In this document: positions 51,535 through 58,323 of the stretch, in pieces
How positions within the stretch are numbered: the first letter of the stretch is position 1
How the letters are laid out: each line of letters opens with the position of its first letter
DNA from: Promethearchaeota archaeon
GTDB lineage: Archaea > Asgardarchaeota > Lokiarchaeia > Sigyniarchaeales > SOKP01
Assembly: GCA_014730165.1 (NCBI GenBank)
Contig: WJIS01000026.1
Coordinates: 1-61,877, forward strand
Length of the DNA stretch: 61,877 bases
Direction of reading: 5' to 3'
Made by a program: the position numbers and the translations under genes
Notes under the pieces: model-generated
What the model saw: only the letters and a program-made list of their open reading frames with translations
What the model was told of the DNA's origin: nothing
The model's database searches: none

Positions 51535-52077
51535 TTAGTAATTATTAATTATTTTAATACAAAGCTCTTTTGTTTTTTTTTTTAGATCCGATTTTGTGGA
51601 TTTATTTTCTATAGTATAATTTGCATTCTTGATTACTTCATTTATACCAAAATTTTGTTCTCTTTTATCCCGAAGATTTAAATCTTCTATAGTTTTAGGA
51701 TCATCTTCCCTAGATCGTTCCTTAATAATTCTAAACCTTTTCTTATCAGAAATAATTATAGCTATTACCGGAAATTTCTGCTGTTTTCGAAAGTACTTAA
51801 CTTCATCCATAGATCTTAATCCATCAACAAAAATTGTATCTATGTTCATTGTTTTGATTTCTTCCATACAGCGTTTGGCAATAACCTCTGGTCCATATTT
51901 ATCTCTCAATTCTTTAGCGATTTTACCAAGGTTTTTATCGTTTAGTTCGATATCACGTCTTAATAATTCATCTCTCACAACATCACCCATATTCATCACT
52001 ATCCCTAAATCTTTTACCGCATCTATCGCTGTACTTTTACCAGAGCCAGCTAATCCACAGAATCCAATCAATTTCAA
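51535..52077 (-). CDS. P-loop nucleotide/dephospho-CoA-kinase-like kinase (UPF0200-like)
   Basis: 180 aa. Walker A is GFCGLAGSGKST. Start is a TTG at 52077. The first 32 nt of the CDS lie inside the 65-bp direct repeat. Confidence 0.6.
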   Translation of the reverse strand: MKLIGFCGLAGSGKSTAIDAVKDLGIVMNMGDVVRDELLRRDIELNDKNLGKIAKELRDKYGPEVIAKRCMEEIKTMNIDTIFVDGLRSMDEVKYFRKQQKFPVIAIIISDKKRFRIIKERSREDDPKTIEDLNLRDKREQNFGINEVIKNANYTIENKSTKSDLKKKTKELCIKIINNY

Positions 52078-52110
52078 GAGATTTCACTTTATTGTAAAGA
52101 TAGATTTATA
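52046..52110. repeat. Direct repeat copy 1 (att-like), spanning the kinase gene 5' end and 33 nt upstream
   Basis: ccagctaatccaCagaatccaatcaatttcaagagatttcactttattgtaaagataGatttata; 63/65 identical to 56910..56974. Confidence 0.9.
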
Positions 52111-52397: not shown

Positions 52398-53591
52398 ATG
52401 TCAGTCACCGCCTCTTTAGTAAGTAGTATAATCATTTCTGTATTAACCGCAGCAAGTTGGGGAGTAGGAGAACCCGCTGCGAAAGCAATAGCTCATCTCG
52501 CCTATTTGAGAATTTATACCTTAATGACCAAGATGTTTATCGACATGGATATGAAAATTGCTGAAGCTCAAAAACGAGCGAGCACATTCTATCCCGTTGG
52601 AAAAGAAAAGAAGGATCCCGTCTCTCTTAATGAACGTTGTCTCACCGATAGGCTATTAGGAGAAGGGATGATCGCTGCCCTAATCGGAGCGCCTGGAGGG
52701 GTTTACACCACCGCTACCGGAGGAGACCCGGGTAATCGCTACAGTGCCGAAGTCTTAGTGACTCCTCCAAACTACGCTCGTATGGGAAGAAGTTTAGGAG
52801 GATTTATCGATCTCTTATGGGAAAACTTCTGGAGCATAGGAACCTCTGACCCCGATACTTTTACCGCCTTAGATTTCGATGATCAAAACATCGATTATTT
52901 CATGCTTACCAGCCAATTAACCTCACTCAATTATAATCCCTCCATCACCTTCACTCCTTCAAACGATCCGCTCAATCCATATCATATGTACGGGTTAAAT
53001 ACCTTAGGATATGCAGAAGGAATTGTTTCAACCGCTTCTGATGATGAGTTTAATACGATTCAAGCAACCAATATTAATGGCAATCCGCATTATGAATTTG
53101 TAGATGGAATTCGTACCTATGATACCGTGTTACCGCAATCCGGCTTATATCATCCGTTAGTTTTATCTCAAGACAGACTGGGAAAAGTACATCTTCCAAA
53201 AGGACATCTTATTATTGAGGTAAGAGCTACGGGTCTCGGAGGAGAGCGAAAGGGAATGAATCCTCTCAAAATGAGTGCGGCAGAACACACCGCCTACGAG
53301 CAGAAGATTCCCCTCAATCCAAACGGCTTCCATTATAACATTACAAAAGTATGGGTCGATGTCGCCCGAGAAGCCGAATTTGAACAAAAAACCTCTTCAT
53401 ACGGTACCGGTAGCAAGATCATTACCAGCATCCCAATACAAGATATTGCGGTAAATCAAAGTGATTATGTTATTGAGAATGGAAATCTCTATTTTACGAA
53501 ACCTATCGAAGAAATTATAGGTTCTGTCGCAGGAGCATCTTATCAATCCGATCTCAGAACATCCTTAAAAGGAGAGGGGAAATATATTTAA
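52398..53591 (+). CDS. Orphan protein with a hydrophobic N-terminus, GC-richer than its surroundings
   Basis: 397-aa ORF with a Gly/Thr/Pro-rich composition unlike neighbouring genes. The frame stays open for 26 codons upstream of the ATG, back to a TAG at 52317-52319, so the 5' end may be eroded. Confidence 0.5.
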   Translation: MSVTASLVSSIIISVLTAASWGVGEPAAKAIAHLAYLRIYTLMTKMFIDMDMKIAEAQKRASTFYPVGKEKKDPVSLNERCLTDRLLGEGMIAALIGAPGGVYTTATGGDPGNRYSAEVLVTPPNYARMGRSLGGFIDLLWENFWSIGTSDPDTFTALDFDDQNIDYFMLTSQLTSLNYNPSITFTPSNDPLNPYHMYGLNTLGYAEGIVSTASDDEFNTIQATNINGNPHYEFVDGIRTYDTVLPQSGLYHPLVLSQDRLGKVHLPKGHLIIEVRATGLGGERKGMNPLKMSAAEHTAYEQKIPLNPNGFHYNITKVWVDVAREAEFEQKTSSYGTGSKIITSIPIQDIAVNQSDYVIENGNLYFTKPIEEIIGSVAGASYQSDLRTSLKGEGKYI

Positions 53592-53607
53592 ACAATTATT
53601 TTAATAT

Positions 53608-53646
53608 TCTCCCTCCCCCGTGGTGCCCCCTCCTGAAAATTCCTCC
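53608..53646 (+). repeat. C-rich ...TGAAAA 3'-flank motif, copy a
   Basis: tctCCCTCCCCCgtggtgCCCCCTCCTGAAAAttcctcc, 17 nt after the stop of 52398..53591. Confidence 0.7.
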
Positions 53647-53747
53647 TAAAAAATTTATAAATCACTCATCCATTCAAAACTTTTTTGAGAATCTATTCTA
53701 ATATAAGTTAGATAAAAATTAAAAGTATGTAATACATACTTACATAC

Positions 53748-53978
53748 ATGAGAACTAATATTGTGATTGATGATGAGTTAAAGGAGAAGTGGTGGGAGAT
53801 TAAAAGAGAAGCAGATCATCTTAACATGAAAATTGGCGATTATATTATTTTTTGTCATGATCTCAGAAAAAAGATGGCGAATAAGGATAAGATTCTTGAG
53901 ATTTTAGGAAATCCATTATCAGATGGTTTAAAAGATGTAGATGTAATAAAGGCAAGTAAGAGTATGTGGAAATCATGA
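53748..53978 (+). CDS. vapB: VapB-like antitoxin
   Basis: 76 aa. The N-terminal MRTNIVIDDELKEKW is typical of VapB-type antitoxins. It overlaps the downstream PIN gene. Confidence 0.65.
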   Translation: MRTNIVIDDELKEKWWEIKREADHLNMKIGDYIIFCHDLRKKMANKDKILEILGNPLSDGLKDVDVIKASKSMWKS

Positions 53979-54388
53979 GGGGGATAGATTCGAATATTCT
54001 TGTGTATGCATTGAATAAAGATCTTCCTGAACATTTACCTTGTAAGGAACTTTTAATAGATATCGTTAACGGAAATGAACTTGTGAGTATTCCTTCAATT
54101 GTTTTTATGGAATGTTTCCACGCATTAGTTAAAGCATTTAAATATAAAGAAGTTGAGGTTAAGAAACGATTAATTGCAATCATCGATTCAAAAAATATTA
54201 ATGTCTTAGACATATCGACTTCCTCAATTTTATTTGCATTTGAGATTGCTGAAAAATATAGAACGGGAGGGAGGGATTCCTTAATCGCAGCAAGTTTATT
54301 AGAAAATAAGATTCAAGAGATCTATTCTCATGATTCAGATTTTGATAATATAAAACTCATAAAACGGATTGATCCAATTCAATTTTAA
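53975..54388 (+). CDS. vapC: PIN-domain toxin (VapC-like)
   Basis: GIDSNILVYAL (first acidic residue), ECFHAL, GGRDSLIAA and SHDSDFDNI supply the PIN acidic quartet. The ATG at 53975 overlaps the vapB stop (ATGA); the track start is 53966. Confidence 0.8.
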   Translation: MRGIDSNILVYALNKDLPEHLPCKELLIDIVNGNELVSIPSIVFMECFHALVKAFKYKEVEVKKRLIAIIDSKNINVLDISTSSILFAFEIAEKYRTGGRDSLIAASLLENKIQEIYSHDSDFDNIKLIKRIDPIQF

Positions 54389-54405
54389 ACTAGCTAAAGT
54401 AATAA

Positions 54406-54451
54406 TCTCTCTTTTCTACCTACCTCCCCCATGTTTTCCCCTCTTGAAAAG
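54406..54451 (+). repeat. C-rich ...TTGAAAA 3'-flank motif, copy b
   Basis: ...ctaCCTCCCCCatgttttCCCCTCTTGAAAAg, 18 nt after the vapC stop. Confidence 0.7.
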
Positions 54452-54539
54452 CTAATTTCAAACTTCCAAATTGTTTTTCTTCAGTAATCCTTTTTTTGCT
54501 TCTTAAATACAATTATAAGGAGATTCTGCATACTTTTCA

Positions 54540-55046
54540 TTGAATTTGAGTGGAAATTTGGATGGAAATAGAATAAAAGAATTACCAAATTGCATCTCGA
54601 ATTTACTCAATTTAGAAGGATTAATAATGCGTAATAATATTATAAAAAGTATACCAAATTCAATAGGGAATATGAAGAGTTTAGATTCCATTATTTTGAG
54701 TAATAATCAAATTTCAAATATTCCAAATTCGATTTGCCAGCTCGGAAATCTTGAAACATTAGCATTAGATAATAATCAAATCTCAAAATTGCCCGAATGT
54801 ATTGAGAATTTAACGAATCTTATCGATCTTTCCTTAAAAGATAATGAATTAAAGGAATTACCTAAAACTTTTATTAATCTAAAACAATTAAGTGGGTTAG
54901 ATTTAAGTAATAATAATTTTACTGAATTTCCCGAAATTTTAAAAGAAATGAATCTATTTGAACTTGACATCTCGGGAAATCCAATCGAAGAATTTCCAAA
55001 CAAGCTAAAGAATATCAAGATGAAAGAAAAAGGTAAGTATATATAA
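54540..55046 (+). CDS. Leucine-rich repeat protein (LRR-only, possibly a fragment)
   Basis: 168 aa. Six to seven 23-aa LxxLxLxxNxIxxIP repeats (e.g. LDSIILSNNQISNIPNSICQLGN). TTG start and no partner domain. Confidence 0.65.
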   Translation: MNLSGNLDGNRIKELPNCISNLLNLEGLIMRNNIIKSIPNSIGNMKSLDSIILSNNQISNIPNSICQLGNLETLALDNNQISKLPECIENLTNLIDLSLKDNELKELPKTFINLKQLSGLDLSNNNFTEFPEILKEMNLFELDISGNPIEEFPNKLKNIKMKEKGKYI

Positions 55047-55363
55047 TCTTACGCTACTAGATCGGTTTGGTTAACATCTTATCCTTTTCACTTGCAATAA
55101 GATTCTATTCTAAAAAGAATCTATATCTATCTAATAGACTTTGAGATGAGGATAAAACACGTTCCCAAAGGTTGATCCTTTTGTCGAAGAATTTTCTAAT
55201 GGTCATTAATCCAATGTATTTTTTATCTTCTCACATGGAGACAGATCCTGTGTGCAGATAGTGATCATGAACGATCTTGATCTCCACGTCAAATCTCGTG
55301 AATTGGTAAACATATTAACCCAGAAACCGAAAAAAGGCAAAAGAGCTTCAAGCACTCCGTAGA

Positions 55364-55654
55364 ATGCGCCCAATTCGTGAACCATCCATTAAGATCTATT
55401 TATTTTCAAACTCTTTGGAGAGTCATATCGAGCCAACTCATTATATCAACTTAAACAGTCTCAAGAAAGCATCCGATATTTTCAATGATAATTATGAAGG
55501 ATTAACCAAAACCGAGATTTATAACAAAATCGCTGGTAAAACCACTGAAAAAATCAGAGCTATCGAAATCTTACAATTCACGGGAAAGAAGATATGTCGG
55601 GTAAGGGTAAGACACTATGGAGATCGGATTAAACCATCCGTTTTACTCTGCTAA
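55364..55654 (+). CDS. Hypothetical protein (possibly a gene fragment)
   Basis: 96-aa ORF. A separate short ORF in another frame (MNDLDLHVKSRELVNILTQKPKKGKRASSTP) lies directly upstream, suggesting a disrupted gene. Confidence 0.3.
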   Translation: MRPIREPSIKIYLFSNSLESHIEPTHYINLNSLKKASDIFNDNYEGLTKTEIYNKIAGKTTEKIRAIEILQFTGKKICRVRVRHYGDRIKPSVLLC

Positions 55655-55830
55655 TTACCCATTTCTCTTCTTTTATTATTATAGAGGGGAGGAAAATTAA
55701 GCTATCTAAAAGGAGTTAAAATTATTTTTATCTATTTCTTATTATTTTGCTAACTTTTGGGTAAAAATTTCAATCAAAAATATTGTAATCTTCCACAGAC
55801 TAACAAGATTTCCGCGTTGAGAAAAAAGAT

Positions 55831-55860
55831 CCCTTTCAAAGGGAGGAAAAGGATGGAGAG
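55831..55860 (-). repeat. C-rich ...TTTGAAA 3'-flank motif, copy c (minus orientation)
   Basis: The minus strand reads ctCTCCATCCttttCCTCCCTTTGAAAggg, starting 13 nt after the stop of the minus-strand PIN gene. Confidence 0.65.
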
Positions 55861-55873
55861 ATATATTCAGTCA

Positions 55874-56284
55874 TCATAAATTAATTCCCTCGTAGAATAA
55901 ATCCGTATTGAATTTTGCTTTGAAAAGTGCTAGTCTCTTGTCCAGAGCCCCGATCCCCTTACTTTCTATTGATAAAGCTAATGCGATAAATGGAATATCT
56001 TTGGGATCTATTTTGCCAATAATTTTTTCAGCTCTATTCATTTCATCAAAATATTCCTCTTCTACTACAACAATAATCTTTTCATGGATAATTTTAACTA
56101 ATTCATCTAATTCCTTTTCAGTACCACCGAATTTCTCAAGAATAGCGGATTTATATTTCTCTAATTCAATATTGTAAAAATCTGGAATGTAAAATGTAAA
56201 ATTAGGACTTAATAAGATTTCTCTAGTTATTGATTTTTTCATAAGTTCCGAGAAGATGATGTTGGAATCTATGATTAACTTCAT
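55874..56284 (-). CDS. PIN-domain protein (toxin of a second TA pair)
   Basis: 136 aa. The N-terminal MKLIIDSNIIFSEL has the conserved Asp, with further acidic positions (EEEYFDE, DPKDIPFIALA). It shares a 4-nt overlap with the upstream small gene. Confidence 0.65.
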   Translation of the reverse strand: MKLIIDSNIIFSELMKKSITREILLSPNFTFYIPDFYNIELEKYKSAILEKFGGTEKELDELVKIIHEKIIVVVEEEYFDEMNRAEKIIGKIDPKDIPFIALALSIESKGIGALDKRLALFKAKFNTDLFYEGINL

Positions 56285-56523
56285 TTTTTCAAGGTTTCCA
56301 AGTAATATTTATATCTCTGCCACATTTTTTCCTTTATTTCATCCCCGAATTTGTCTGCCTCTTCCAATGTGAAATTACTTTTTTCTGCTAATTTATTCGC
56401 AACCTCCAGTTTCTCTAAATAGTTTTCAATTGCACATTGAGCTACCTTTTCCCAATTAATTTCGGGGTATTTTTTCATTTTTTCCAATATATCTTGTGAA
56501 AAGGAAAATCTGATATCGGTCAT
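56281..56523 (-). CDS. Putative antitoxin partner of the PIN protein
   Basis: 80-aa helical ORF, translationally coupled (ATGA overlap) to 55874..56284. Confidence 0.5.
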   Translation of the reverse strand: MTDIRFSFSQDILEKMKKYPEINWEKVAQCAIENYLEKLEVANKLAEKSNFTLEEADKFGDEIKEKMWQRYKYYLETLKK

Positions 56524-56774
56524 ATTCCATCTATAAATTTTATGGAAGGTAGAATTTATAATTTTTTCTCTTTATTTCTATTCTTCCTCAGATTATTAGT
56601 TTCTGACTATTCTTTTTAGTTACAAAGTTAATTTTTTCTATTATATATAGGTATATTAAGTTCTGAGTTCTAAGGTATCCTCAGTTCTCAGATCCTATAT
56701 ACCCTCTTTTTTCATCATCAAAATTTATGTATTCATTTAAAAACCAACTGAGACTTCCCGCCGAAAGAAAGAAT

Positions 56775-56808
56775 TCTTTTCAAAGGGGAGGGAAAGGAAG
56801 GGGGTATA
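56775..56808 (-). repeat. C-rich ...TTTGAAAA 3'-flank motif, copy d (minus orientation)
   Basis: The minus strand reads tataCCCCCttcctttCCCTCCCCTTTGAAAAga. It lies about 20 nt after the stop of a 13-codon minus-strand ORF remnant next to repeat copy 2. Confidence 0.65.
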
Positions 56809-56909: not shown

Positions 56910-56974
56910 CCAGCTAATCCATAGAATCCAATCAATTTCAAGAGATTTCACTTTATTGTAAAGATAAATTTATA
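56910..56974. repeat. Direct repeat copy 2 (att-like), carrying a truncated duplicate of the kinase gene start
   Basis: ccagctaatccaTagaatccaatcaatttcaagagatttcactttattgtaaagataAatttata. On the minus strand it reads TTG-KLIGFYGLAG and then a stop. Confidence 0.9.
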
Positions 56975-57102
56975 AAACATTGAATAAAACTTAAATCTAT
57001 ATAAAATATTAAGCATAAAAAATAAAATAATATTAGCAAGATCCTATATTGTTATAGAGATTTCACTTCTTGAATATAATTCAGATCCAGATTGAATTAA
57101 TT

Positions 57103-58323
57103 ATGGTGAATTATTCTAATAATAGAAAGAGTGAACAAAACAAAGAGGGAACCTATGAAAGATCGCTTCGTAGTCCTGAATTGATGAAGTTCCTCAAAAA
57201 AAAAGATAAGACTGATGATAAGGAACAAGATAGATTTATTAAGGTTAAGTGGAAAGCATATCGTCGGATAGTTGGTTATGCGATTAGGTATGCAAACAAA
57301 GATATATCCTCTAGTAAATGGAGAGAAGTTTATGGAATTTTAGTGGGGAGCATAGAGGATAAGAATATTGTTTTGGTAAAAGATGCTATACCAATGATAG
57401 TTGGTGATAGAGCAGGTGTAAAATATGAAAACAAACAGTATGTAGATATGGCACAAATTGATGCTTCAATTTTTGAAAGATCTATACATGATAACAAGAA
57501 TGATTTTATTATAGGTTGGTGGCACACGCATCCGGGATTTGGATTTTTTTTATCTCCTATTGATTGTCTAACTCAATTAGGGTATCAGATACCGAATCCA
57601 AAAGCCATCGGACTTATTTTTGATCATACAAAAATGGATTCTAAATCATTAGGAATTGGTGTCTTAACGTTAAAAAATCCAGAAATAGGTGTGAGGTCTA
57701 GTTATCACATTATCGAAAATATAGAATATGAATTAGAACAATCGAAAATGGTTAAGAAAGCTAGAAAAATCATGGATAGAGTAAAGAAAAACAATGAAGA
57801 TATAATAGAAAATATTAATTATATCCAAGAAACTCTCATAAATAAAGGGTATTATAAATTACAAGAGGAATTCGGACTCATACCAGAACGAAATCAGAAT
57901 GAGGTCCCGATTGATGAGCAAATTCAACGCATAAACGAGGAAAATGTGGAATTTATTTGGGATATGACGGATTCAGAAGCAGATTATACCATCCCCAAGT
58001 TTCGGCAAGACTTAGAGGAGGAACTCAAAGATTATCATGAAGAACTCAAAAAGCTCCAAGAGGATGAAGAAAAAGGAAAATTAAAACAGAAAAAAAAGAA
58101 ATATAATAAGAAAATAATTTCGAAGCTAGAAAAACCAACCCAATGGTATCTCAAGTTATTGAGTGATTTCAATGATAAATTAGAGAAGATATCAGATTTT
58201 TTCGATTATCTTGACACAAATGAACGCAAAACGATAGAGAGCTTCGAAAAAAAACTTTCTAATTATCATGATGTGTTGGAAGAAATTCTCCATTGGGCAG
58301 AATTTTCTGTATTTGAGAGCTAA
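57103..58323 (+). CDS. JAMM/MPN+ metalloprotease domain protein with a long coiled-coil C-terminal tail
   Basis: Complete JAMM motif: EVYGILVG (Glu) and GWWHTHPGFGFFLSPID (HxHx7Sx2D). The C-terminal ~200 aa are K/E-rich heptad-like. First ATG at 57103; the track starts at a TTG at 57070. Confidence 0.8.
   Translation: MVNYSNNRKSEQNKEGTYERSLRSPELMKFLKKKDKTDDKEQDRFIKVKWKAYRRIVGYAIRYANKDISSSKWREVYGILVGSIEDKNIVLVKDAIPMIVGDRAGVKYENKQYVDMAQIDASIFERSIHDNKNDFIIGWWHTHPGFGFFLSPIDCLTQLGYQIPNPKAIGLIFDHTKMDSKSLGIGVLTLKNPEIGVRSSYHIIENIEYELEQSKMVKKARKIMDRVKKNNEDIIENINYIQETLINKGYYKLQEEFGLIPERNQNEVPIDEQIQRINEENVEFIWDMTDSEADYTIPKFRQDLEEELKDYHEELKKLQEDEEKGKLKQKKKKYNKKIISKLEKPTQWYLKLLSDFNDKLEKISDFFDYLDTNERKTIESFEKKLSNYHDVLEEILHWAEFSVFES

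Follow-up and report, generated by a model that had tools for sequence, protein, structure and literature searches.

An approximately 40-nt mirror-repeat element, E1, coincides with recombination breakpoints between gene cassettes in Loki-type Asgard archaea

Recombination breakpoints in Loki-type Asgard archaea coincide with a conserved sequence element of about 40 nt, which we call E1. Two of its copies, a and b, lie in the window (the whole 61,877-nt stretch of DNA analyzed here), where a preliminary description had noted four copies, a to d, of a C-rich motif punctuating the genes of one island. E1 is one conserved family that includes copies a and b; c and d could not be assigned to it. 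In our judgment there is an even chance that E1, including a and b, is a DNA boundary element at which cassettes are gained, lost, and exchanged in Loki-type chromosomes. E1 would then be the recombination junction of an integron-like cassette system, with a mechanism that we infer as follows. Recombination between two E1 copies would delete or insert the intervening block, and cassettes would thereby move between arrays and between distantly related genomes. The 26-nt core would be recognized in a sequence-specific manner by a factor, probably a recombinase, whose gene lies elsewhere.

The four sequences in the window were confirmed at the positions originally given (Table 1). A pattern fitted to them post hoc matches only these four copies in the 62-kb window, where shuffles expect 0.01, and nothing comparable lies downstream of any of the roughly 50 other genes there. 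The window has many C-rich pyrimidine tracts (72 on the plus strand and 83 on the minus strand), and copies c and d have no relatives elsewhere; both observations would fit chance low-complexity C/T tracts. The probability of that explanation is negligible given the excess over shuffled sequence, the match of copy a, without mismatch across 27 nt or more, to copies in at least 11 other genomes (Asgard MAGs), and a block common to c and d whose chance expectation is 0. The explanation is already refuted for copies a and b.

Treating the four copies as one motif was only partly justified. The motif is real, a being related to b (81% identity over 31 nt) and c to d, but it is heterogeneous: the E1 model used to score the window copies, which was built from copies in other genomes, barely detects d and does not find c. 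The 20/21-nt block common to c and d, TCCTTT(T/C)CCTCCC(C)TTTGAAA (as a pattern, TCCTTTYCCTCCC...TTTGAAA), is absent from all 157 loci fetched. These two copies may represent a very decayed or variant form flanking a second toxin-antitoxin unit. The tail of copy a appears to be duplicated (CCTCCTGAAAAT / TCCTCCTAAAAAAT), reaching approximately position 53653, and homology between the window and other vapBC loci starts exactly at this copy. Copy b occupies the position at which a canonical E1 follows vapC in two other loci, L027 and L035.

Table 1. Coordinates of the island features in the window
Feature	Position	Strand	Description
65-nt direct repeat, left copy	52046..52110		Promoter and first 11 codons of AAA-kinase gene 51535-52077(-); kinase domain found
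397-aa ORF, fragment cut at both ends	52398..53591	+	Aligns to residues 147-514 of 562-aa P0002; homologs >679 aa
Copy a, canonical E1	53605..53640	+	CTCCCTCCCCC-GTGGTG-CCCCCTCC-TGAAAA; 41.2 bits vs E1 model
vapBC cassette, E1-to-E1 unit	53641..54416	+	vapB 53748-53978; vapC 53966-54388, PIN domain
Copy b, decayed E1	54417..54453	+	CCTACCTCCCCC-ATGTTTT-CCCCTCTTGAAAAG; 28.5 bits vs E1 model
LRR ORF, C-terminal fragment of longer LRR protein	54540..55046	+	Pfam LRR; starts just past copy b
Partial box TTTTCCTCCCCTCT	55683..55696	-	10 nt in common with box 2 of copy c; read by eye, statistically unsupported
Copy c	55831..55860	-	C-rich box, then TTTGAAAGG; 13 nt past PIN_2 stop; not recognizable as E1
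RHH antitoxin and PIN_2 toxin operon	55874..56523	-	Pfam PIN_2; RHH_12 in homologous loci
Copy d	56775..56808	-	20/21-nt block in common with c; 5 bits vs E1 (tail only; E about 10)
65-nt direct repeat, right copy	56910..56974		Truncated duplicate of kinase 5' end

The placement of the copies relative to genes is less regular than it had seemed. A distance of 13 to 20 nt from the preceding stop codon applies to a (17 nt past the end of the 397-aa ORF) and c (13 nt), but not to b (31 nt) or d. The only ORF that copy d follows, 44 aa long and spurious, lies within the duplicated start of a gene, and d is effectively upstream of the RHH-PIN_2 operon. The degenerate copy proposed to follow the LRR ORF (55076-55101) does not align with the E1 that follows homologs of that ORF and is unsupported. 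The G-rich fragment at 55683 has a 10-nt box, TTTTCCTCCC, in common with copy c when read by eye but shares nothing further with it.

The consensus of E1 is tATTAT-CTCCCTCCCCC-GTGGTG-CCCCCTCCT-(A/G)AAAAAG. Its core is near-invariant and forms an 11-6-11 mirror repeat around GTGGTG, perfect over 22 nt. At least 131 strong copies were found in at least 98 low-GC loci (locus GC, 24 to 35%), mostly contigs from marine sediment, and E1 is present in at least 11 Asgard MAGs; the genome scan pattern required TGAAA, and the metagenome figures are among the matches listed. With a search pattern that left the spacer free, GTGGTG or a one-base variant was found in 15 archaeal low-GC loci (11 MAGs), whereas bacterial matches had random spacers. 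Positions not imposed by the search pattern are 84 to 96% conserved. TTGAAA, which closes the motif as first described, is not the conserved core: 72% of copies in the wider family have TAAAAA at that position. In partial copies, or half-sites, the break adjoins the central GTGGTG. Viral contigs contained no match to any of the patterns used (a/b, c/d, the E1 core, and E2), and a viral origin of the motif was rejected on these grounds. A full-text literature search with the core sequence gave no match, and we found no description of E1 in the literature searched on Asgard mobile elements, integrons, and defense islands.

E1 copies are arranged in arrays, in which 44 of 46 adjacent pairs are co-oriented and 2 are opposite. 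The spacing, typically 0.55 to 2.7 kb with a minimum of 342 nt, led us to reject a CRISPR repeat, for which regular arrays with spacers of 25 to 50 nt would be expected. Each interval carries one or two accessory genes, including toxin-antitoxin pairs, defense ATPases, CBASS components, GNAT acetyltransferases, LRR proteins, and hydrolases. Among the 37 units with called ORFs, the genes are co-oriented with E1 in 20, anti-oriented in 11, and mixed in 6, contrary to the claim that the motif is always oriented as the gene it follows. The co-orientation of E1 within arrays holds whichever direction the enclosed genes point.

Gene 3' ends adjoin E1 on both sides, and the upstream neighbor is co-oriented with it in 78 cases versus 37. 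In the 40 nt preceding E1, T is abundant and G scarce (7%), runs of at least five T's occur upstream of 50% of copies and downstream of 26%, and T6 is found on the opposite strand. These features, the lack of a recombinase near E1, and the imprecision of some junctions described below could also be explained if the main role of E1 between accessory genes were transcriptional insulation or regulation through a bound protein, for example as a bidirectional terminator or roadblock, with shuffling as a by-product of homologous recombination between 40-nt copies in the absence of a dedicated recombinase. We consider this possible but rather unlikely. For homologous recombination, identical copies suffice and a single sequence fixed across divergent lineages is not required, and 40 nt is short for the process to be efficient. 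Further, a strand-specific transcription signal would not require the array-wide constant orientation of E1 regardless of the genes, and the E1 core has no T-run. If E1 is a cassette boundary, the T-tracts that flank it on both strands probably insulate the cassettes transcriptionally.

Alternatively, E1 might be the promoter and operator of each cassette, in which TATTAT is a TATA box, the C-rich core is the operator of a common repressor, and transcription starts in the A-run. About 32 nt separate TATTAT from the A-run downstream, by our own reckoning close to archaeal promoter geometry, and in several loci an E2-type ORF starts about 8 nt after E1. Nevertheless, this role is improbable: the downstream neighbor is co-oriented with E1 in only 58 cases versus 57, 11 of the 37 units hold anti-oriented genes only, in about 30 cases the end of a convergent gene is no more than 60 nt from the 3' side of E1, and the vapBC cassette has a TATA-like box of its own further downstream.

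Comparisons between loci support E1 as a cassette boundary. The vapBC unit of the window recurs in four other contigs (L027, L035, L007, and L141) with 92 to 96% protein identity and unrelated outer flanks, and the homology extends from the upstream E1 to the vicinity of the downstream one. In contrast, the core JAB protein has no relative with more than 55% identity, a difference that suggests horizontal transfer of the cassette. Similarly, positions 4124-4823 of L033 match positions 1359-2058 of L143 (96.6%), and positions 309-1411 of L143 match positions 1922-3024 of L118 (91.8%); barring short E1-E1 matches, these are the only segments common to those loci. Where pairs of E1 copies have similar flanks, the similarity is confined to the upstream flank in 22 pairs and to the downstream flank in 86, and extends to both in 1. 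The left and right flanks of E1 assort independently. One contig, SDBT01006632.1, has the arrangement U-E1-[9.5 kb]-E1-D, and L083 and L108 have U-E1-D, a precise insertion or deletion; the 9.5-kb block of defense genes contains SMODS, SAVED, HNH, and GNAT genes. Some junctions look imprecise, with linkers of 10 to 45 nt between E1 and the conserved vapBC core, and the point at which one and the same downstream sequence joins E1 differs slightly between L097 and L057.

Independent assortment of the flanks also bears on whether E1 is itself mobile. E1 is short, repeated, intergenic, and restricted to one lineage, in keeping with a tiny, nonautonomous, MITE-like element that inserts in intergenic regions. 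However, a lone insertion would keep both flanks common to related loci, no terminal inverted repeats or target-site duplications are present in or around E1, and no pair of loci differs by E1 alone in a data set composed almost entirely of E1-containing loci. We therefore regard this explanation as very improbable. For copies a and b, the earlier suggestion of modular cassettes with a unit boundary and possible recombination site is upheld by the recurring vapBC unit, the co-oriented arrays, and the shared E1-to-E1 segments, but copies c and d remain unplaced.

The island in the window is a 4.9-kb insertion in the conserved kinase/JAB intergenic region, bounded by a 65-nt duplication. The two copies of the 65-nt direct repeat are 97% identical and spaced 4864 nt apart, and the kinase and JAB genes are only 120 to 137 nt apart in other Asgard genomes. 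The segment from copy a through vapBC to copy b would be one E1 unit inside this 4.9-kb patchwork of cassettes and gene fragments. The RHH-PIN_2 operon has d upstream and c downstream, in direct orientation and about 944 nt apart; at the PIN_2 3' end, homology to other genomes ends 24 nt short of copy c. The possibility that the motif travels with this operon was rejected because homologous RHH-PIN_2 cassettes (L158 to L164) contain neither E1 nor the c/d box. Travel with the 397-aa gene was likewise rejected, as the homologous loci L001 and L002 lack the motif. The LRR ORF aligns to the C-terminal part of homologs of 280 to 294 aa, and a canonical E1 follows those homologs.

The preliminary description, which took the motif for neither an oligo-T terminator nor an attC site, was right on attC and probably also on the terminator. 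E1 is not attC-like because it forms no hairpin: RNA folding of six candidate sites in the window gave z-scores of +0.3 to -1.4, with no structure, and 57 members of the E1 family had a median z-score of -0.4. G-rich partner sequences are not enriched up to 155 nt from E1, a further ground for rejecting an attC-like site. An element-specific 3' RNA signal found no backing in the folding, which detected no RNA structure, and the proposed resemblance of the CCUCC cores to an anti-Shine-Dalgarno sequence is unsupported. There is no canonical three-tetrad G-quadruplex motif, and none was predicted by ViennaRNA with G-quadruplexes enabled. A C/D-box sRNA was considered because AUGAUGA and CUGA occur near copy c, and was rejected because the other copies lack these boxes. 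Rfam gave no match in the window at the gathering score; between 52000 and 57100, its sole match was a subthreshold SNORA27 at 55633-55724. tRNA-linked integration was rejected, since neither the window nor 60 E1 loci contain a tRNA gene. In the Pfam listing for approximately 280 neighboring ORFs, no recombinase or transposase recurs near E1, on contigs that are mostly short and without array heads.

Several observations count against E1 as a recombination junction: the lack of a recurring recombinase, the mirror-repeat arms, the imprecise junctions, the absence of a tie between E1 and copies c and d, and the homologous RHH-PIN_2 cassettes without any such site. Neither circular intermediates nor excision at the population level were observed. 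Known tyrosine and serine recombinases act on sites with inverted arms, in contrast to the mirror-repeat arms of E1. Possibly, though less likely than not, E1 has a more specific role as the attachment site of an Asgard-specific cassette-capture system, an integron analog with a hairpin-less mirror-repeat site that might use a recombinase or a structure-dependent (triplex-type) mechanism to assemble antiviral defense and toxin-antitoxin genes and exchange them among distant lineages. Among known prokaryotes, Asgard archaea are the closest relatives of eukaryotes. Their accessory gene pools and defense repertoires are large and under intense study, and how such genes move is poorly understood. 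Exchange at E1 would account for near-identical cassettes in lineages with core proteins only about 50% identical. E1 could be a new class of recombination site; it also offers a concrete, testable handle on the mechanism of gene exchange and a simple marker for accessory and defense islands in fragmented MAGs.

E1 invites comparison with several known systems. REP/BIME, Neisseria DUS, and Correia elements, intergenic repeats that also serve as terminators or recombination handles, are dyad symmetric, very abundant, and distributed genome-wide. Like them, E1 is a short conserved intergenic sequence adjoining gene 3' ends, but it has no dyad, is apparently low copy, and is clustered in accessory islands. 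Homopurine-homopyrimidine mirror repeats form H-DNA triplexes and are recombination hotspots. The arms of E1 are similarly a perfect pyrimidine mirror repeat around a 6-nt center; because they are short (8 to 11 nt) and C-rich, any triplex at E1 would depend on protonation or supercoiling.

An enrichment of integron-type arrays in Asgard MAGs has been reported (PMC9668308); the E1 core sequence was not found in three supplementary text files of that report. Arrays of E1 resemble integron attC arrays, including integrase-less clusters (CALINs) and the VCR repeats of chromosomal super-integrons, in their short sites of one orientation and in cassettes of 0.5 to 2.7 kb with one or two genes. In both, the cargo is rich in toxin-antitoxin pairs, acetyltransferases, defense genes, and unknowns, and the same cassette can turn up in identical form in more than one array and genome. 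An adjacent integrase is usually lacking, for E1 among the listed Pfam families. Unlike attC, E1 has no hairpin and no R''-L''/L'-R' dyad, is conserved in sequence rather than structure, and has no GTTRRRY core in the consensus of 128 copies. Unlike in integrons, the cassette genes point either way, vapBC at least appears to have its own promoter, and no IntI was found among the listed Pfam families of neighboring ORFs.

E1 differs from pdif in its arms, a mirror repeat that is C-rich on the same strand on both sides, and in its copies, which are direct repeats. The pdif (XerC/XerD) modules of Acinetobacter plasmids have sites of about 28 bp with an 11-6-11 layout, inverted-repeat arms, and flanking sites that are oppositely oriented. 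E1 shares the length of about 28 bp and the 11-6-11 geometry, CTCCCTCCCCC-GTGGTG-CCCCCTCCTAA. Both bound small modules, often toxin-antitoxin, in many contexts, and the recombinase that acts on pdif is encoded elsewhere, as that of E1 would be.

The four C-rich motif copies of the preliminary description, designated a to d, were recovered at their positions, and the gene context it gave for the island (ORFs and domains) was confirmed. A pattern fitted post hoc to all four copies, TTCARRRGRRRN{3,12}GGRDGRRG on the complementary strand, matched the window at these copies only, compared with 0.01 matches from shuffles. When the 80 nt 3' of 57 likely genes were inspected, motif-type sequence was confined to genes within 53.6-56.8 kb, in agreement with the claim that no comparable copy lies elsewhere; ordinary oligo-T tracts followed most other genes. 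The claim that the motif follows a gene fails for copy d, where the preceding 44-aa ORF arises from reading a duplicated gene start out of frame. Folding of each copy with its flanks gave no structure signal.

Features of the window and of loci fetched from other genomes or metagenomes (L-numbers)
Feature	Locus	Position (nt)	Strand	Remark
AAA-kinase gene	window	51535-52077	-	
65-nt direct repeat	window	52046-52110; 56910-56974		97% identical
397-aa ORF	window	52398-53591		island gene
Copy a	window	53605-53640	+	
Apparently doubled tail, copy a	window	53626-53653		CCTCCTGAAAAT, then TCCTCCTAAAAAAT
vapB/PIN-vapC unit	window	53641-54416		island genes, between a and b
Copy b	window	54417-54453	+	
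LRR ORF	window			island gene
96-aa ORF	window			island gene
Copy c	window	55831-55860	-	
Antitoxin (RHH)/PIN_2 operon	window	55874-56523	-	island genes, between d and c
Copy d	window	56775-56808	-	
JAB/MPN (Rpn11-like) gene	window	57070-58323		
Shared unit	L033; L143	4124-4823; 1359-2058		96.6% identity
Shared unit	L143; L118	309-1411; 1922-3024		91.8% identity
LAGLIDADG-domain protein, 437 aa	L143	2679-3992		just past last E1 of a three-cassette array
E1 half-copies	L150; L057	7581-7601; 1191-1213		also L064, L091, L144, L097
E2	L054	1123-1170		also L083, L108, L122, L150, about 35 others
E2-N-terminus family	L013	1258-2805		
E2-N-terminus family	L035	3797-5029		
E2-N-terminus family	L018	52-1455; 4746-6122		
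E2-N-terminus family	L020	257-1297		

Sequence comparison assigns copies a and b to an element of about 40 nt, here called E1, that is widespread and almost invariant. When a single genome per species was scanned with CCTCCCCCN{5,9}CCCCTCYTGAAA, the spacer being left free, 35 loci were returned. Spacers were random in the 18 bacterial or high-GC matches; in 15 low-GC archaeal loci, from 11 MAGs labeled Promethearchaeota, Hermodarchaeota, or "uncultured archaeon," the spacer was GTGGTG or a one-base variant. When metagenomes were scanned with the E1 core, at least 120 stretches matched. A profile derived from the genome copies detected at least 131 strong copies in at least 98 loci, every locus having 24 to 35% GC; Loki's Castle contigs (LAZR01) are among the E1-bearing loci. 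Across 128 copies the consensus reads tATTAT-CTCCCTCCCCC-GTGGTG-CCCCCTCCT-(A/G)AAAAAG.AG, in which positions left free in the search pattern are 84 to 96% conserved, and CCTCCCCCGTG and GTGCCCCCTCC together form a 22-nt perfect mirror repeat. TGAAAA, previously taken as the typical tail, is a minority variant (G in 22% and A in 72% of E1 copies). E1 is a conserved, lineage-restricted sequence; pattern scans did not find it in viral contigs, and a full-text literature search found no paper containing it.

Breakpoints between homologous and nonhomologous DNA fall at E1. VapB and VapC of the window have counterparts of 92 to 96% identity in L027, L035 (chromosome CP070831.1), L007, and L141. In the DNA alignment, the loci are unrelated to the left of the upstream E1; similarity starts at E1, spans vapBC, and fades 10 to 45 nt short of the downstream E1, beyond which the loci are again unrelated. 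L027 and L035 have a canonical E1 at the position of copy b, which is therefore a decayed E1 and exemplifies decay toward a T-rich spacer. Two further units, shared by L033 with L143 and by L143 with L118, are the sole segments common to otherwise unrelated loci, short E1-E1 matches aside, and each spans one E1 to the next. Among 110 E1 copies having both flanks, pairs were similar upstream only in 22 cases, downstream only in 86 (many through E2, a separate short element), and on both sides in 1; the two flanks of E1 thus assort independently.

Blocks bounded by E1 are also present or absent between loci. Contig SDBT01006632.1 reads U-E1-[9.5 kb]-E1-D, where U and D are the upstream and downstream flanks, while L083 and L108 read U-E1-D, and the U-side and D-side alignments overlap within E1. 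Within the 9.5-kb block lie genes for a SMODS nucleotidyltransferase, a SAVED effector, an HNH nuclease, a GNAT protein, and a protein resembling YaaC. Further indels of 3 to 4 kb distinguish the same region of this contig (L052 and L057) from L083 and L108. We put the chance that E1 is a dedicated recombination junction at about even; cassettes would then have moved by recombination between E1 copies.

E1 copies occur in co-oriented arrays. Neighboring copies had the same orientation in 44 of 46 pairs (binomial p about 3e-11), mostly 0.55 to 2.7 kb apart, and a 51-kb contig carries at least seven on a single strand over 31 kb. The motif had been said always to take the orientation of its gene; of the units, 20 had only genes co-oriented with E1, 11 only anti-oriented genes, and 6 a mixture, and 2 had no called genes. 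Because copies are co-oriented while the enclosed genes point either way, E1 orientation belongs to the array and not to the adjacent gene, which points to a role at the DNA level rather than as a strand-specific RNA signal. Upstream neighbors were co-oriented with E1 in 78 cases versus 37, with the stop a median of about 50 nt ahead of E1; downstream neighbors were divided 58 versus 57, with many convergent stops less than 60 nt away. The 40 nt 5' of E1 are T-rich and G-poor, with T6 on the opposite strand, and thus suggest oligo-T terminators toward E1 from both sides. Alternatively, E1 could serve insulation or regulation and its copies recombine through homology, a reading we consider rather unlikely; promoter, MITE-like, and chance explanations jointly take up the remaining weight.

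Copies c and d are so far candidate members of E1. They are identical at 20 of 21 nt, are built like E1 (C-box, short spacer, C-box, (T)TGAAA), and bracket the RHH-PIN_2 operon as direct repeats, parallel to a and b around vapBC. The c/d block occurred in none of the 157 fetched loci, and seven loci with homologous RHH-PIN_2 operons have no c/d-type site. The proposal of a boundary that marks modular cassettes, and may be a recombination site, is upheld for a and b, whose unit is shared from E1 to E1 between unrelated flanks; c and d lack such relatives. The shuffles argue against a chance resemblance of C/T tracts for the pattern. The E1 profile gave c no score and d 5 bits (a, 41; b, 28.5).

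L165 and L166 (= CP070805.1), both Asgard, retain the order NifU, hydrolase, PRPP synthase, kinase (-), JAB (+), Alba, VTT, with only 120 to 137 nt between kinase and JAB; the window therefore has this conserved core neighborhood interrupted by a 4.9-kb insertion. The 65-nt repeat, which spans the kinase promoter and the gene's first 11 codons, encloses the entire island, within which no integrase was found. The island is a patchwork. The LRR ORF corresponds to the C-terminal portion of 280- to 294-aa proteins, PIN_2 loses homology three codons ahead of its stop, and the 397-aa ORF aligns to residues 147-514 of a 562-aa homologue, further homologues exceeding 679 aa. This ORF is an internal piece of a far larger, functionally uncharacterized protein; homologues of the ORF come solely from marine-sediment metagenomes, three from Loki's Castle (LCGC14). 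A 279-aa homologue in L001 ends shortly past an NLYFTK motif, near which the window homology also stops. The JAB protein has 472 homologues at E 1e-30 or better; those listed are largely from Asgard archaea, none above 55% identity, and the collections searched therefore apparently include no close relative of the source organism. The vapBC cassette, by contrast, has its near-identical counterparts elsewhere. Invariance of the E1 core across lineages this divergent would reflect sequence-specific recognition.

The 594 ORFs close to E1 fall into very small families, the biggest having 10 members. Repeated domains are PIN, LRR, GNAT, Ras/Roc, AAA_15/AAA_21 ATPases (matching AriA, GajA, AbiL, Old, and PtuA models), Schlafen/AlbA_2, SAVED, HNH, and hydrolases. 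No integrase or transposase was among the families listed, and no tRNA gene occurred in 60 E1 loci.

E2, TGGAA(A/T)GGTAAATTCAG(A/C)GTCTGATTTCAATGAAAATTCCTTTGAAAA, is a near-invariant 48-nt element that includes GGTAAATTCAGAGTCTGATTTCAATGAAAATTCCTTTGAAAA. It has 60 copies in 40 fetched loci, several of them 1 to 70 nt 3' of E1, and is absent from the window. Its peptide, M(N)GKVNSESDFNENSFE, begins the proteins of a family that combines a peptidase-S24-like domain with variable C-termini, and conservation of E2 extends to synonymous positions. The reading frame closes within 40 codons in 33 of the 39 strong copies, so most E2 copies appear to be orphan 5' fragments. The protein family most often found next to E1 has this N-terminus and a peptidase-S24/S26-like domain; its C-termini vary, and some look HNH-like by eye. 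Downstream of its gene there is typically a small variable gene (LRR, DUF2695, or unknown), with E1 next, a layout resembling polymorphic toxin-immunity loci.

E1 half-copies retain one arm and GTGGTG, the other arm being swapped for unrelated sequence. In L097 and L057, identical downstream sequence (TATTACTTGG) meets E1 at slightly shifted positions. The apparently doubled tail of copy a could be a recombination footprint or coincidence; TGAAAATTCCT, in this region, has 11 nt in common with E2.

E1 was rejected as a MITE, as a CRISPR repeat (given the spacing of its copies), and, by Rfam comparison, as an Rfam family; no canonical G-quadruplex was predicted. The earlier judgment that the motif is not attC holds for E1, which has no hairpin, G-rich partner, or GTTRRRY core. 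Archaeal integrons, mostly integrase-less attC clusters, are reported to be enriched in Asgard MAGs (PMC9668308), and the three text supplementary files of that paper do not contain the E1 core. Mirror rather than inverted arms and direct-repeat copies rule out a Xer-type site, although E1 has the 11-6-11 geometry of such sites.
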